A stretch of DNA of 64,000 bases, taken from the NCBI GenBank assembly GCA_965228895.1, contig OZ245842.1:32001-96000 (forward strand). The letters are read 5' to 3'. This DNA comes from Alphaproteobacteria bacterium. Its GTDB lineage: Bacteria > Pseudomonadota > Alphaproteobacteria > SP197. A model generated the notes under the pieces. The model made no database searches. It was not told where the DNA came from and saw nothing but the letters and a program-made list of their open reading frames with translations. Positions 34,434 through 39,465 of the stretch are shown in pieces. A program made the position numbers and the translations under genes. Every line of letters begins with the position of its first letter. The stretch's first letter is position 1.

Positions 34434-34895
34434 ATGGATCAAGCGGTGACGGACCACTTCAACGACTACTATGTCGGCCAGACCGAAAGTTATGCGCGGA
34501 CGATCTCGGAAACGGACATCGTTCTGTTTTCGGGCGTTTCCGGTGACGATAACCCCGTCCACCTAAACGAAATCTACGCGGCGGAGTCCTTCTTTAAGGG
34601 CCGCATCGCCCACGGCATGCTGACCGCCAGCTACATCTCGACCGTGATTGGGACCCGGCTTCCGGGACCCGGCACCATCTACCTGGGCCAGAATCTGACG
34701 TTCTGGGCGCCGGTCCGGGCGGGGGACACGGTGACGGCGACCGTGACGATCAAGGCGATCGATCCGGAAAAGCGGCGGCTTACGTTGACGACCAACTGCA
34801 CCGTCGGCGACGAGACCGTCATCGAAGGCGAGGCGCTTGTCATGCTCCCGCTTCCCGAAGACGCCAAGGCGACGGAGAAAGGCGCTCCCGCCTAG
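34434..34895 (+). CDS. MaoC-family (R)-specific enoyl-CoA hydratase, PhaJ-like
   Basis: SGD.NPVH....A...F.GRIAHGML. Confidence 0.9.
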   Translation: MDQAVTDHFNDYYVGQTESYARTISETDIVLFSGVSGDDNPVHLNEIYAAESFFKGRIAHGMLTASYISTVIGTRLPGPGTIYLGQNLTFWAPVRAGDTVTATVTIKAIDPEKRRLTLTTNCTVGDETVIEGEALVMLPLPEDAKATEKGAPA

Positions 34896-34944
34896 CGTAC
34901 GGACCCGGTTGTGTCCCCGGCGCCTTGCGGTTAGGACAGGCGCC

Positions 34945-35946
34945 ATGATCATTCAGCACGAGATTGACGCGACGTCCGACGCGTTGCGCGGCGGCGTTTT
35001 TGCGCTCGGCAACTTCGACGGCGTGCATCGCGGCCATCGCGCGGTGATCGACGCGGCCGGTGCCCTGGCCCGTGCCGAAGACAGGCCCTGGGGCGTGATC
35101 ACCTTCGAACCGCATCCGCGCGAATTCTTCCAAGCCTCGTCCGTGCCGTTCCGATTGACGCCGTTTCGCCAGAAGGCGCGGTTGCTCAACAACATCGGCA
35201 TCGACGTCATGGTCAATCTGCCGTTCGCCGGCGACATGGCCGGGCGCAGCGCCCAGGATTTCGTCATGGAAGTTTTGGTCGATGGCCTCGGACTGGCGCA
35301 CGTCGTGACCGGGCCGGGCTTTGTCTTCGGCAAGGGCCGGCGCGGCAACGGTTATGTCCTCAGTCACATGGCGGGCATGGAGGGGTTTGGCTACACCGAG
35401 ATCGAGACCTACCTGGATCAAGACAAAAAGGTCTCATCGACCGAAATCCGTGTCCTGCTGCGCCGCGGCCAGGTCGATCGCGCGAACGCGCTGCTCGGCC
35501 ATTTGTGGGAATTCGAGGGCCGCGTCGGACCCGGCGACAAGCGCGGCCGCACCATGGGTTTTCCGACCGCGAACCTGTCGCTGGACGAGCGTCTGCATCC
35601 CGGACCGGGCATTTATGCCGTCCGCGCTGGTCTGGCGGAATCCGGCGCCGAGGGCTGGGACAGCGGCACCACGTGGTATGACGGCGCCGCCTATATCGGC
35701 ACGCGGCCGACCTTTGACGGCAAGACCGTGGTCCTGGAGACGTATCTGTTCGATTTTGACGGCGATCTTTATGACCAGCGTCTGCGTGTTGCCTTTGTCG
35801 AACGGGTCAGAAAGGACATGACGTTTACCGGCATGGACGATCTGGCGCGACAGATGGAAGACGACTGCAACCGGGCCCGCGACGTCCTGGCGGTGCTGGA
35901 TGGCCGGTCGCCGGAGACCTCGGGCCTGCCGAAGGTGGCGGTTTGA
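34945..35946 (+). CDS. ribF: Bifunctional riboflavin kinase / FAD synthetase
   Basis: GNFDGVHRGH, SST.IR, GFPTAN. Confidence 0.96.
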   Translation: MIIQHEIDATSDALRGGVFALGNFDGVHRGHRAVIDAAGALARAEDRPWGVITFEPHPREFFQASSVPFRLTPFRQKARLLNNIGIDVMVNLPFAGDMAGRSAQDFVMEVLVDGLGLAHVVTGPGFVFGKGRRGNGYVLSHMAGMEGFGYTEIETYLDQDKKVSSTEIRVLLRRGQVDRANALLGHLWEFEGRVGPGDKRGRTMGFPTANLSLDERLHPGPGIYAVRAGLAESGAEGWDSGTTWYDGAAYIGTRPTFDGKTVVLETYLFDFDGDLYDQRLRVAFVERVRKDMTFTGMDDLARQMEDDCNRARDVLAVLDGRSPETSGLPKVAV

Positions 35947-35988
35947 TGCGCCTCGACTTGCCCCTTTGGGGCTGGTAAAACCCGCGCC

Positions 35989-36069
35989 ATGCCGGCCAAA
36001 CGTTTCATAACGGGGCGCGCGCCTTTGGCCATAGAGCCCGCGCGAATTATCGGCCCGGTCCTGATCTAA
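35989..36069 (+). CDS. Putative Ile-rich leader peptide (26 aa) upstream of ileS
   Basis: MPAKRFITGRAPLAIEPARIIGPVLI*; Ile codons ATA, ATA, ATT, ATC, ATC; ATG 7 nt after TAAAAC; stop codon lies in a hairpin loop. Confidence 0.65.
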   Translation: MPAKRFITGRAPLAIEPARIIGPVLI

Positions 36070-36127
36070 GGGCCGGGACGCCTTCCGTCATCCCGTTTGA
36101 TAAGTTTTCCGACAAAGGTTGCGTGTC

Positions 36128-38977
36128 ATGACTGCCGACTACAAGTCGACGCTGTTTCTGCCAAAAACTGAGTTTCCCATGAAGGCCGGCCTGCCGAAGC
36201 GCGAGCCGGAACTCCTGGAGCGCTGGCAGACCATGGACCTCTACCGCGTGCTGCGCGAGGACTCCAAAGGTCGTGAGAAGTTCATCCTGCATGACGGCCC
36301 GCCCTACGCGAACGGCCATCTGCATATCGGCCACGCGCTCAACAAGATCCTCAAAGACGTCATCAACCGGTCCCAGCAGATGCTGGGCAAGGACGCCAAC
36401 TACGTGCCCGGCTGGGATTGCCACGGTCTGCCGATCGAATGGAAGATCGAGGAACAGTACCGCGCCGCGGGCAAGGACAAGGACGAGGTGCCGATCGTCG
36501 AGTTCCGCCGCGAATGCCGGGACTTCGCCGAGCACTGGATCGGCGTGCAGTCCGACGAGTTTCAGCGGCTCGGCGTCATCGGCGACTGGAAGCGGCCCTA
36601 TACGACCATGAGCTTTGACGCCGAGGCGCAGATCGTGCGCGAGCTCGGCAAGTTCATCATGGATGGCTCGCTCTATCGCGGCTCGAAGCCCGTCATGTGG
36701 TCGTGCGTCGAAAAGACCGCGCTTGCCGAAGCCGAGATCGAATACGACGACCACAAGTCGACGACCATCGATCTGGCGTTCCCTGTCATCAAAGCGTCGG
36801 TACCCGTGCTTGACGGCGCGGCCATCGTCATCTGGACGACAACGCCCTGGACGATCCCCGGCAACCGCGCGATCGCCTATGGCAAGGCCATGGACTACCG
36901 CGTGGTCGAGGTCGCCGAGGTGACGGAGAAATCCGGCGCCAAGCCGGGCGACCGTCTGGTCTTTGTCGCCGAGCTGATGGAAGGCGCGCTCAAGCGTTGC
37001 GGCGTCACGGCCCATCAAGAGGTCGCTCAACTGAAAGGCGCCGACCTGGCCGGCACGGTGACGTCGCACCCATTGCGCGGGCAAGGCTACGATTTCGATG
37101 TGCCACTGTTGGCCGGTGATCACGTGACCACCAAACAAGGCACCGGCTTTGTGCATATCGCGCCGGGCCATGGCGCGGAGGACTGGGTGCTGGGCATCGA
37201 GAACAATATCGAGGTGCCGTTCACGGTCGGTGAAGACGGCGCTTACTACGACACCGTTCCGCTGTTCGCCGGTAAGCGAGTTCTGACCGCCGACGGCAAG
37301 GAAGGCGACGCCAATGGCGCCGTGGTCAAGGCGCTCGCCGAGTCAGGCCACCTGCTCGGTGTCGGCAGGCTGGTGCACAGCTATCCCCATTCCTGGCGGT
37401 CGAAGGCACCGCTCATCTTCCGCAACACGCCGCAATGGTTCGTGTCGATGGAGACGAACGGTCTGCGTGACACCGCGCTGGCGGCGATCGACGCGACGCG
37501 CTGGGTCCCGGCTTCGGGTCAGGACCGCATCCGCGGCATGATCGAGGATCGGCCCGACTGGGTCTTGAGCCGACAGCGCGCCTGGGGTGTGCCGATCACC
37601 GTCTTTGTCCATAAGGAGAGCGGTGAGGTCCTGCGCGACCAGCAGGTCGTCGACCGCATCGCCGAGGCCGTGGCCGAAGAGGGCGCCGATGCCTGGTTCG
37701 CGGGCGATCCCCAGCGGTTCCTGGGCAACGATCACAAGGCCGAGGACTATGAGAAGGTCGATGACATCCTCGACGTCTGGTTCGACTCCGGATCGACCCA
37801 CGCCTTCGTGCTGGAGCAGCGCGAGGACTTAGCGTGGCCGGCTTCGCTTTATCTGGAGGGGTCCGACCAGCATCGCGGCTGGTTCCATTCCTCGCTTCTG
37901 GAAAGCTGCGGTACGCGTGGGCGTGCGCCCTATGACGCCGTCCTGACGCACGGTTTCGTCATGGACGGCGACGGGCGCAAGATGTCGAAGTCGCTCGGCA
38001 ACGTGGTCGCGCCGCAAAAGGTCATCGAACAGTACGGTGCGGACATTCTGCGCATCTGGGTGGTCAGCGCCGACTATTCCGAGGACTTGCGGATCAGCGG
38101 CGAAATTCTGAAGTACCAGGCCGACAGCTACCGCCGGCTCAGGAACACCCTGCGTTTTCTGCTTGGCAATCTCGCCGGTTTCGATCCCAGCGAACGGTTG
38201 GATCCCGCCGAGATGCCGGAACTCGAACGCTGGGTCCTGCATCGCGTGGTCGAGCTTGACTCCGTTGTGCGCGAGGCCTGCGACAATTTCGATTTCCACG
38301 AACTCTTCATTGCCGTCCATAATTTCTGCGCGACCGATCTCTCCGCGTTCTATTTCGATATCCGCAAGGACGCGCTTTATTGCGACCGCGCGGACTCGAA
38401 ACGCCGGCGCGCGGCGCGCACGGTGCTTGACGTGCTGTTCGATTGCCTGACGGCCTGGCTTGCACCGGTCCTTTGCTTTACCGCCGAGGAGGCGTGGTTG
38501 ACCCGTTTCCCTGGCGAGGGCGAAAGTGTGCACCGGCGGACCTTCCCTGACGTGCAGGATGTCTGGCGCGACGATGCCCTGGCAAAAAAGTGGCGGCGCG
38601 TACGCCGGCTGCGCCGGGTCGTGACAGGTGCATTGGAAGTTGAGAGACGCGAGAAGCGGATCGGCGCTAGTCTTCAGGCCCATCCCAAGGTTTATGCGAC
38701 GGCCGAGGATATCGCCGCGTTGGATGGCCTTGATCTCGCCGAAATTGCCATCACATCATCGGCTACCTTGATCGAGGGAACGCCGCCGGACGATGCCTTC
38801 CGCCTGGAAGACGTCGCCGACATTGGCGTGGTGCCCGGTTTTGCGGATGGTCAGAAATGCGAGCGATGCTGGATGGTGCTGGATGATGTTGGCCGCGACC
38901 CCATCTACCCGGAACTGTGTGCACGCTGCGCCGACGTGGTGGCGTCGTTGACCCATGTGGTCGAAGTGAGCGGCTAA
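36128..38977 (+). CDS. ileS: Isoleucine--tRNA ligase (type 1)
   Basis: HIGH, KMSKS, C-terminal CERCW..C.RC zinc finger. Confidence 0.99.
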   Translation: MTADYKSTLFLPKTEFPMKAGLPKREPELLERWQTMDLYRVLREDSKGREKFILHDGPPYANGHLHIGHALNKILKDVINRSQQMLGKDANYVPGWDCHGLPIEWKIEEQYRAAGKDKDEVPIVEFRRECRDFAEHWIGVQSDEFQRLGVIGDWKRPYTTMSFDAEAQIVRELGKFIMDGSLYRGSKPVMWSCVEKTALAEAEIEYDDHKSTTIDLAFPVIKASVPVLDGAAIVIWTTTPWTIPGNRAIAYGKAMDYRVVEVAEVTEKSGAKPGDRLVFVAELMEGALKRCGVTAHQEVAQLKGADLAGTVTSHPLRGQGYDFDVPLLAGDHVTTKQGTGFVHIAPGHGAEDWVLGIENNIEVPFTVGEDGAYYDTVPLFAGKRVLTADGKEGDANGAVVKALAESGHLLGVGRLVHSYPHSWRSKAPLIFRNTPQWFVSMETNGLRDTALAAIDATRWVPASGQDRIRGMIEDRPDWVLSRQRAWGVPITVFVHKESGEVLRDQQVVDRIAEAVAEEGADAWFAGDPQRFLGNDHKAEDYEKVDDILDVWFDSGSTHAFVLEQREDLAWPASLYLEGSDQHRGWFHSSLLESCGTRGRAPYDAVLTHGFVMDGDGRKMSKSLGNVVAPQKVIEQYGADILRIWVVSADYSEDLRISGEILKYQADSYRRLRNTLRFLLGNLAGFDPSERLDPAEMPELERWVLHRVVELDSVVREACDNFDFHELFIAVHNFCATDLSAFYFDIRKDALYCDRADSKRRRAARTVLDVLFDCLTAWLAPVLCFTAEEAWLTRFPGEGESVHRRTFPDVQDVWRDDALAKKWRRVRRLRRVVTGALEVERREKRIGASLQAHPKVYATAEDIAALDGLDLAEIAITSSATLIEGTPPDDAFRLEDVADIGVVPGFADGQKCERCWMVLDDVGRDPIYPELCARCADVVASLTHVVEVSG

Positions 38978-38982
38978 CGTCC

Positions 38983-39465
38983 ATGATGCGTTTGGCCCTT
39001 GTGATTGCCGGCGTGGTCCTGGTCTTGGATCAAGTCTCCAAGGTCTGGTTGCTCGGGGTCATGGAAGCCAACGCTTACCGCCCGATCGAAGTGACCGGCT
39101 TCTTCAACCTCGTGATGGTCTGGAACGAAGGCGTCAGTTTCGGCATGCTGAAGGTGGGTTCAGACATGATGCGCTGGATCTTGATGGGCTTCGCCCTTGC
39201 TGTCGCTGTGGCCTTGCTGATTTGGGCACGCCGGTCTGCCGGAATGGTGCTGACGGTCGGGATCGGATTGATCGCCGGCGGTGCCGTCGGGAACGCGCTG
39301 GACAGGCTGTTTTATGGCGCCGTCGCCGACTTTTTCGATGTCCATGTAAGCGGCTTTCATTGGCCAGCCTTCAATATTGCCGATTCTGGGATTACAATCG
39401 GCGTTGTGCTGCTGCTCTACGATACGCTGCTGAATCGTCGTCCTGACCCCAAAGTGTCTGCATGA
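38983..39465 (+). CDS. lspA: Lipoprotein signal peptidase II
   Basis: N.G.SFG, GN.LDR, FNIAD. Confidence 0.96.
   Translation: MMRLALVIAGVVLVLDQVSKVWLLGVMEANAYRPIEVTGFFNLVMVWNEGVSFGMLKVGSDMMRWILMGFALAVAVALLIWARRSAGMVLTVGIGLIAGGAVGNALDRLFYGAVADFFDVHVSGFHWPAFNIADSGITIGVVLLLYDTLLNRRPDPKVSA

Follow-up and report, generated by a model that had tools for sequence, protein, structure and literature searches.

Classical leader-peptide attenuators, such as trpL, pheM, ivbL/ilvL and hisL, control amino-acid operons and pheST, and the use of rare codons is known from the leu leader. Here we describe a candidate isoleucine leader upstream of ileS in an alphaproteobacterial genome (GenBank assembly GCA_965228895.1, contig OZ245842.1, positions 32,001 to 96,000 of the forward strand; this whole stretch of 64,000 nucleotides is called the window, and coordinates are counted from its first letter). 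Like the classical attenuators, it consists of a short upstream open reading frame (uORF) just before a synthetase or biosynthetic gene and contains a cluster of cognate codons, rare ones included; like trpL, it has its stop codon between the two arms of the first hairpin. Unlike them, it showed no sign of a four-segment 1:2/2:3/3:4 design, and it has no general U-tract terminator and no selected partner for the 3' arm of its hairpin. Its control codons lie just before the hairpin at an invariant distance of 8 nt, and the uORF is predicted to be leaderless.

To our knowledge, Alphaproteobacteria have no T-boxes, and the ilv attenuators of enterobacteria are not applicable to them. The isoleucine T-box of Firmicutes and Actinobacteria resembles the element described here in its gene, in its signal (the charging of tRNA-Ile) and in the logic of a regulon made of ileS plus ilv genes; the T-box differs in that it binds uncharged tRNA directly and does not need translation (PMC1262725). 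The trpL leader of Sinorhizobium meliloti, whose mRNA starts with the AUG of the 14-residue leader peptide peTrpL (PMC10117765; PMC6614838, PMC7298713), is likewise alphaproteobacterial, leaderless and a case of ribosome-dependent control by amino-acid supply. Unlike the element here, it responds to tryptophan and serves another gene; it is described as a transcription attenuator that releases a small RNA, and for the present element action in cis is proposed. Closest by position is an "ileS leader CDS (CCNA_03934)", named among the small coding sequences (CDSs) from ribosome profiling (Ribo-seq) of Caulobacter crescentus (Schrader et al. 2014, PMC4117421); it too is a small CDS before an alphaproteobacterial ileS, a likeness of description and not of compared sequence. 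The passages of that paper on CCNA_03934 use it only as a negative control in an over-expression assay and say nothing of its sequence, conservation or regulation; 375 leaderless mRNAs are reported in Caulobacter. In the literature searched, which was mostly open-access and did not take in supplementary Ribo-seq tables, we found no description of a control that matches isoleucyl-tRNA synthetase (IleRS) and isoleucine synthesis to demand in Alphaproteobacteria, and none of an isoleucine leader for alphaproteobacterial ileS beyond the naming of CCNA_03934 in PMC4117421.

The best explanation of our results is that the element is a leaderless isoleucine sensor, read by the ribosome, that controls ileS-lspA in cis, and the comparison of genomes makes us think this quite probable. 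Conservation of the frame, its start, the isoleucine cluster, the hairpin and the association with the gene is demonstrated at the level of aligned sequences. The parts of the element in the window are as follows.

35952..35957, + strand: -35-like box CTCGAC; in relatives, CTCGAC or CTTGAC stands about 17 nt before the -10-like box (the TCGACT named in a preliminary description of this DNA is 35953-58).
35973..35981, + strand: extended -10-like box TGgTAAAAC, ending 7 nt before the A of the ATG; TAAAAC is 35976-81.
35989..36069, + strand: candidate isoleucine leader peptide, a putative leaderless uORF of 26 codons plus TAA, MPAKRFITGRAPLAIEPARIIGPVLI.
36007..36033, + strand: stretch with the two upstream rare isoleucine codons ATA (36007-09 and 36031-33), recognised from sequence and codon usage.
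36043..36051, + strand: putative sensor core CGA-ATT-ATC (Arg-Ile-Ile), conserved in distinct elements.
36037..36090, + strand: match to covariance model R1 (47.4 bits, E 3e-7).
36054..36077, + strand: hairpin H1, CCCGGTCCT / loop GATCTA / AGGGCCGGG, 9 bp with a 6-nt loop, -17.8 kcal/mol.
36128..38977, + strand: ileS, most likely the regulated gene (TIGR00392, 850 bits).

The uORF ends 58 nt before the ileS ATG on the same strand, and its stop TAA (36067-69) falls across the junction between the H1 loop and 3' arm. The preliminary description had noted a 26-codon ORF with five isoleucines in the ribF-ileS gap, and the ORF list, the translation and the sequence bear this out: in addition to the two ATA codons there are ATT (36046-48) and ATC (36049-51), which form an Ile-Ile pair directly preceded by CGA (36043-45), and a final ATC (36064-66). 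The rarity that it had ascribed to ATA and to this CGA also holds in the window genome (5.53 Mb, 62.4% G+C). Over 1141 long ORFs with 565,740 codons, isoleucine makes up 4.83% of codons and is encoded by ATA in 7.3%, by ATT in 15.4% and by ATC in 77.3% of cases, while CGA is 8.8% of arginine codons. With all six frames counted, the window has 265 ATG-ORFs that are 15-40 codons long; the leader uORF has the highest isoleucine fraction among them (5/26), and only 3/265 have two or more ATA codons. By itself, the isoleucine richness of this uORF is no more than suggestive; it is the comparison with other genomes that lifts it above chance.

For that comparison, covariance model R1 was built from 23 seeds and used to scan 110 ileS loci; the counts that follow are for 80 distinct elements from 82 matches, with ileS and non-ileS loci pooled. 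R1 was not built to favour the isoleucine cluster, the ATA bias or the frame statistics. That the element is read as a peptide is supported by its frame. An ATG-ORF reaching the motif from within 90 nt is present in the CGA-ATT frame in 79/80 elements, compared with 4/80 in frame +1 and 5/80 in frame +2, and the sole miss is a locus cut by a contig end. Similarly, a stop codon lies at +15 to +36 nt, inside the hairpin, in 72/80 elements in the CGA-ATT frame, against 9/80 and 2/80 in frames +1 and +2. These stops are TGA in 57 cases, TAA in 11 and TAG in 4; since all three occur, it is a stop codon that is kept, and not a particular sequence. The ATG stands at -12 to -66 nt from the motif, always at a distance of whole codons. 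R, I and P do not vary when 25 diverse leader peptides are aligned, and the motif lies 2-7 codons before the stop in all 72 elements with a stop inside the hairpin.

The part of the peptide between Met1 and the conserved Arg is variable, and it is enriched in isoleucine. Among 61 distinct leader peptides, isoleucine accounts for 76/632 codons (12%) of this part, compared with 21 and 28/632 in the other two frames; valine (18/632) and leucine (50/632) are fewer, so that the enrichment is specific to isoleucine and does not extend to other branched-chain residues. The rarest codon is here the commonest, with 34 ATA, 26 ATC and 16 ATT, and this over-use of ATA fits the proposal of the preliminary description that both isoleucine isoacceptors are sensed. 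When 78 uORFs are aligned on the conserved ATT, isoleucine is found at -5 in 10%, at -4 in 17%, at -3 in 32% and at -2 in 22%; at -11 to -6 its share is 1-6%, and at -14 to -12, where fewer uORFs reach, 3-12%. Position +1 is isoleucine in 51% and otherwise mostly Thr or Ser, and after the Pro only 9/237 codons are for isoleucine. The core is also conserved codon by codon: Arg stands at -1 in 76/78 uORFs, and in the distinct elements its codon is CGA in 76/80, the codon after ATT starts with A in 79/80 and the Pro codon at +3 is CCG in 80/80. The residue before the Pro, at +2, is G in 35/78 uORFs. It had been suggested that ileS upstream regions be translated across Alphaproteobacteria and examined for the frame and for R-I-I-G-P; the frame, the leaderless geometry and an R-I-x-x-P core turn out to be conserved, and the G is not.

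The core is followed at a fixed distance by the hairpin. In every element the stem is a CCCGG/CCGGG hairpin whose first base comes 8 nt after the A of ATT. Over the 80 distinct sequences 93.7% of cells in the H1 stem are paired, compared with 86.5% in shuffles (0/500 reach 93.7%) and with 32-52% when the partners are slid against each other. Double-sided changes number 57 cells, where 19.3 are expected; the three upper pairs have 15-20 double changes each, and CCG:CGG at the base is the same throughout. In a ribosome that has CGA in its P site and ATT in its A site, pairing in H1 begins at +12, counted from the first P-site base. At about this point the ribosomal helicase runs into a downstream helix, and stem-loops of the frameshift type at such a position are reported to hinder binding of tRNA to the A site. 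Decoding of CGA is itself inhibitory.

The element is widespread in the class. Among the named alphaproteobacterial ileS loci, which are the best 80 of at least 600 matching stretches, it is seen in Rhizobiales, Rhodobacterales, several Rhodospirillales-type lineages and Sneathiella. Those of the 80 that belong to Sphingomonadales, and those in which ribF abuts ileS, did not show it. R1 matches upstream of ileS and on its strand were found in 60/110 loci at E <= 0.05, and five further loci have weak variants at the homologous place (L005, and a Bradyrhizobium/Xanthobacteraceae type GGC-ATT-AGC-GGC-CCG), which brings the total to 65/110. At E <= 0.01 and under strict filters, 41/151 genomes taken one per genus from the whole class have a match, a figure that is a lower bound. 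As related genomes are not independent, such counts overstate the number of independent events. In the window genome the ileS copy is the sole significant match, the next best having E 0.34-0.85. In a search of 41 related genomes at the DNA level, conservation upstream of ileS reaches back only to about 36032-36042, in the last third of the uORF, and a separate 41-nt match with 88% identity to 36038-36078 occurs in a genome of another family. When the 215 nt upstream of ileS were aligned for 30 genomes, a CTCGAC...TGnTAnA box recurred, with an ATG or GTG a few bases on, then GCGAATTA and then the hairpin. Rfam gave no match at E <= 10 in 35500-36600, T-box included, and four leader peptides had no match at E <= 10 in NCBIfam and Pfam. 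The element is, as judged from these comparisons, a conserved family that is uncatalogued in Rfam, Pfam and NCBIfam.

The genes that follow the element are also informative. In the 29 best class-level loci it stands before ileS in 18 and elsewhere in 11, and at 10/11 of the latter a gene for a conserved protein of about 100 residues lies downstream of it. This protein has no match in Pfam or NCBIfam; its structure model (predicted local distance difference test score, pLDDT, 88) has the beta-alpha-beta-beta-alpha-beta ACT fold and matches the ACT domains of homoserine dehydrogenase, aspartate kinase and IlvN (5ypp, template-modelling score TM 0.76, target-normalised, root-mean-square deviation 1.4). 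Depending on the genome, the next gene is for citramalate synthase (TIGR00977, 485 bits), for the biosynthetic threonine ammonia-lyase IlvA (TIGR01124, 432 bits) or for a DUF4743/NUDIX protein. The two routes to isoleucine begin with IlvA and with citramalate synthase. Since the element is common to ileS, ilvA and cimA, it looks as a sensor of isoleucine charging should, and it marks an isoleucine regulon. Two genomes (G033, G027) have it at the ACT-gene locus but not at ileS. The proposal of the preliminary description that ileS-lspA is under feedback control by charging of tRNA-Ile thus gains support from the conserved element and from its association with ilvA and citramalate synthase, as far as sequence can support it.

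In the ten class-level loci concerned (L117, L121, L123, L127, L129, L131, L134, L135, L138, L139), the gene for the stand-alone ACT protein, with the motif CFxVxAxxDPGxMPRVLELFAKRGLVP, is always found behind the isoleucine leader. This IlvN-like protein may be an unrecognised regulatory subunit of isoleucine synthesis. At one locus (L120, G081:C11), two elements stand in tandem before the ACT-protein gene, 200 nt apart (1501-1556 and 1701-1754); the first appears leaderless, behind CTTGAC-N17-TATACC, and for the 36-codon uORF of the second neither a promoter nor a Shine-Dalgarno (SD) sequence is obvious. The window genome contains a diverged second copy (G000:C1:2922903-2922955, minus strand, 20.9 bits, E 0.34), which reads ATG...ATC-AGG-CGA-ATT-ACC-GGC-CGG and has a stem base one C short. 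It precedes a gene for a 107-residue ACT-fold protein (L144:4075-4398, minus strand), also without a Pfam or NCBIfam match, after which an MT-A70 methyltransferase gene follows on the opposite strand.

The start of the uORF is placed as expected for a leaderless mRNA. Its ATG comes 7 nt after TAAAAC, a TG stands one base upstream of TAAAAC, and TCGACT lies 17 nt further up; no purine-rich SD sequence precedes the ATG in the upstream sequence (ACCCGCGCC). The absence of an SD and the arrangement TCGACT-N17-TAAAAC-7 nt-ATG, both pointed out in the preliminary description, are thus present as it had described them, and relatives keep the spacing from box to ATG, in line with its reading of this geometry as a sign of leaderless translation. 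Most of 64 listed loci have a TAnAAn-type box 6-8 nt before the in-frame ATG; the -10-like boxes are of the kinds CTAnAA, CTATAAG and TAAAAC, with a -35-like CTTGAC or CTTTATTC about 17 nt further up. Such a fixed spacing fits the geometry of a leaderless mRNA. Support comes also from Methylorubrum extorquens DM4, where the ileS promoter was mapped by differential RNA sequencing as TTCCCC-17 nt-TAGAAG-cgctcca-A (PMC9320726), with the start of transcription 150 nt upstream of ileS and at a distance of 7 nt from TAGAAG; this arrangement is the same as in the Methylobacterium and Bosea loci analysed here. A scan with the E. coli consensus found no promoter in the gap. The miss is accounted for by a -10-like box that ends in C, the alphaproteobacterial -10 element being described in the same source (PMC9320726) as lacking the final conserved T.

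Where transcription starts, that this organism translates the leader, that ribosomes stall on it and which sign the response has are inferred as follows. Transcription would start at or next to the A of ATG 35989, and a ribosome would load at the 5' end and translate the 26-codon leader. When charged tRNA-Ile is scarce, the ribosome would wait at the isoleucine codons, of which the last and best conserved is ATT 36046, with the rare CGA in the P site. Because H1 starts 8 nt after ATT, the waiting ribosome would leave H1 folded and would stand at its foot without melting it, and H1, the P-site CGA and the wobble-read AUU could together lengthen the wait. With ample Ile-tRNA, ribosomes would go on across the 5' arm of H1 and reach the stop codon within the hairpin. 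Because ileS, ilvA and cimA must all rise when Ile-tRNA is short, a ribosome that is parked should mean more IleRS (ON). It follows that models in which translation melts an H1 terminator or pause hairpin have the opposite sign.

Several results weigh against an isoleucine sensor of this kind. The gap between ribF and ileS as a whole does not fold unusually well compared with shuffles (z -0.98), and a terminator scan found no intrinsic terminator in it. Four or more T in the 8 nt after H1 were counted in only 7/82 elements, a count in which the long Rhizobiaceae hairpins are misplaced. Measured against 100 dinucleotide shuffles, the 50 nt that follow H1 are not unusually complementary to its 3' arm (n=77, mean z +0.21): 32/77 elements are below zero, 13 above +1 and 4 below -1, with the window at +1.24, so that a switch between antiterminator and terminator, or one acting through an anti-sequestor, is unsupported. 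CGA, ATT and CCG are fixed as nucleotides, which could reflect a constraint on the RNA rather than decoding, and the invariance of ATT among the R1 matches is partly a matter of ascertainment, because the seeds of R1 carry CGAATTA. In 8/80 elements, mostly at ACT-gene loci, there is no stop in the hairpin and the frame reads through. In two sister species of the window organism a 135-nt insertion splits the uORF and the leaderless frame stops within the insert, and in genus g4, of the same family as the window organism, the isoleucine codons are lost from the corresponding uORF in 10/15 sampled genomes. A search of sequencing runs listed no RNA run that contains this stretch: the RNA entries had shares of 0.04-0.09, and the runs that contain it were of unknown kind.

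How a parked ribosome would raise expression is less clear than what it would sense. Of the ribosome-mediated attenuation suggested in the preliminary description, the uORF and its isoleucine cluster stand, and the alternative hairpins and the U-tract terminator do not: in the search for a mutually exclusive pair, H1 was the only conserved hairpin. A general role of H1 as an intrinsic terminator was rejected, as U-tracts are lacking and the sign would also be wrong; the exception is Rhizobiaceae, whose H1 is long and has ATTTT or TTTTT (U4-5) after it. A classical 2:3 antiterminator was dropped as the leading model after ribosome-masked folds of single sequences proved inconsistent between lineages and the duplex test was null. 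A second hairpin (H2) after H1 is conserved in Rhodobacterales, with some covariation and no U-tract; it is visible in Rhizobiaceae but was not recovered there by RNAalifold. The spacer to the start codon is pyrimidine-rich and may be as short as 39-55 nt. Downstream of H1, the window contains the following.

36074..36108, + strand: weak candidate alternative hairpin CGGGA (36074-78) / TCCCG (36091-95), then TTTGATAAGTTTT; -5.6 kcal/mol, unsupported as a terminator.
36078..36127, + strand: pyrimidine-rich 50-nt spacer; the AAAGG in it (36114-18) is SD-like and stands 9 nt ahead of the ileS ATG.

The candidate formed in the window by CGGGA/UCCCG and UUUGAUAAGUUUU was likewise dropped (-5.6 against -17.8 kcal/mol for H1, z +1.24). 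Stabilisation of an mRNA by a stalled ribosome is known from ermC, and RNase E prefers sites of the form RAUUW / RN-WUU; the AAUUA beside the stem-loop presumably recalls such sites. It is possible, if short of likely, that the parked ribosome guards against RNase E-type decay by covering the AU-rich GAAUUA site and the 5' end, and such shielding could explain the invariance at the nucleotide level and the fixed distance to the stem-loop. Pausing or termination of transcription that depends on the hairpin, with the parked ribosome interfering sterically, is a more doubtful output. Translational control, including occlusion of the downstream start in read-through variants, seems rather unlikely; here the parked ribosome would stop a flow of ribosomes that otherwise disturbs initiation downstream. 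We give a similarly small chance to some other output step. A specific form of the sensor that we entertain tentatively is a minimal attenuator, widespread in Alphaproteobacteria, that defines an isoleucine regulon of ileS, ilvA, citramalate synthase and the IlvN-like ACT protein, with no alternative fold and no terminator. The ribosome would work simply by parking, for example over an RNase E-type site, at a built-in slow site, where rare AUA, a P-site CGA and an A-site AUU that is read by wobble combine with the hairpin at the mRNA entrance (+12).

Other explanations have to be weighed against a sensor of charging. SecM carries a FxxxxWIxxxxGIRAGP-like motif with an invariant G-P, and the preliminary description had compared the RIIGP of the window with it. 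A nascent R-I-x-x-P chain might arrest the ribosome near the end of the uORF as in TnaC, SpeFL or SecM, perhaps in response to free isoleucine or another ligand and not to tRNA charging. The invariance of R, I and P among the 25 aligned peptides and the place of the motif 2-7 codons before every in-hairpin stop are as such a peptide would have them, and the element shares with these systems a conserved residue pattern and an essential Pro near the end of a short uORF. The SecM motif itself is absent, however, so that the comparison does not hold: the two positions between I and P vary freely, with G at +2 in fewer than half of the uORFs, and CGA, ATT and CCG are fixed at the nucleotide level. 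Codons are conserved as much as residues, CGA being almost constant though it is a minor arginine codon, which argues that the codon matters and not just the residue, and the Pro codon CCG belongs to the invariant stem base. The extra isoleucine codons at variable positions, with ATA over-used, are required by a charging sensor, and an arrest peptide has no need of them; control by free isoleucine would be unsuited to ileS. We therefore regard arrest by the peptide as improbable, while noting that it is compatible with a charging sensor and that the two are not mutually exclusive.

An element that acts untranslated, as a structured RNA or a binding site for a protein or RNase (GCGAAUUA plus the hairpin), would make the open frame incidental. 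CGAATTA and CCCGG/CCGGG are indeed invariant as nucleotides, the hairpin covaries, and a likeness of AAUUA beside a stem-loop to RNase E sites would suit this view. Against it stand the near-constant in-frame ATG, which the other two frames have in 4 and 5 elements, and the stop within the hairpin, which may be TGA, TAA or TAG; the spacing between the ATG and the -10-like box is constant, that between the ATG and the motif changes by whole codons, and all three isoleucine codons are enriched at variable positions. No Rfam family matches, and a translated ileS leader CDS is named in the Caulobacter study (PMC4117421). Action as RNA alone is thus very improbable. That the uORF is a functionless chance ORF in a GC-rich gap is hardly credible: five isoleucines in 26 codons are, taken alone, only modestly unusual and the whole gap folds no better than shuffles, but the comparative results across orders contradict it, as does the single significant R1 match in a 5.5-Mb genome. 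A ribosome-read isoleucine sensor therefore remains our preferred explanation.

Such a sensor would link ileS with ilvA, citramalate synthase and an unstudied ACT protein, and its anatomy, with a fixed 8-nt gap, stacked rare codons and neither terminator nor alternative fold, could show a way of regulation by a stalled ribosome that is not the textbook one. It is a candidate that is easily mutated in Sinorhizobium, Caulobacter, relatives of Rhodobacter and Methylobacterium. It would also add a family to the catalogues of RNAs and leader peptides and improve the annotation of many genomes.

The genes that flank the element were named in the preliminary description as ribF, ileS and lspA, and matches to NCBIfam profiles confirm all three. 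The two in addition to ileS are listed here.

34837..35946, + strand: ribF, bifunctional riboflavin kinase/FAD synthetase, listed from the first TTG, with its stop at 35944-46 (TIGR00083, 230 bits; NF004160, 319 bits).
38917..39465, + strand: lspA ORF as listed, overlapping the end of ileS (TIGR00077, 113 bits).

The element varies between lineages in several ways. The read-through uORFs are those of L123, L131, L135, L138 and L139, which are ACT-gene loci, and of L025, L128 and L140; the five at ACT-gene loci continue for 87-108 nt and end about 15-45 nt past the downstream start codon in another frame, which suggests occlusion of, or coupling with, the downstream gene. The insertion in the sister species (G001 and G002, loci L002 and L003) is flanked by the direct repeat CTAGAGC and has internal inverted repeats, like a miniature inverted-repeat transposable element (MITE). 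It lies at about -225 to -92 nt before the ileS ATG, a place that corresponds to about 36033-36037 in the window, which is without it. The insert contains an ATG that by chance shares the frame of the end ...EPARIIGPVLI, and the second upstream ATA of the window reads CTA in these species.

In genus g4, isoleucine at the core is kept in only 5/15 sampled genomes, and the others have Leu or other codons. At ten g4 loci (L012, L013, L015-L017, L019-L021, L023, L028) the promoter-like box and the ATG are kept and the isoleucine core is replaced, for example by M-L-L-P-G-P-V or L-R-L-T-G-P-V, and the uORF frames shift or run up to the ileS start. In some g4 genomes the TGA of the uORF directly abuts the ileS ATG, or the uORF and ileS form one fused frame. 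These genomes seem to have lost the sensor or rebuilt it. In a Bartonella-named record (L082), about 95 nt before ileS, the sequence ATA-CGA-ATG-ATG-AGT-TCG-GCT stands where relatives have ATA-CGA-ATT-ATT-GGC-CCG-GCC, as if the element had decayed in a reduced genome.

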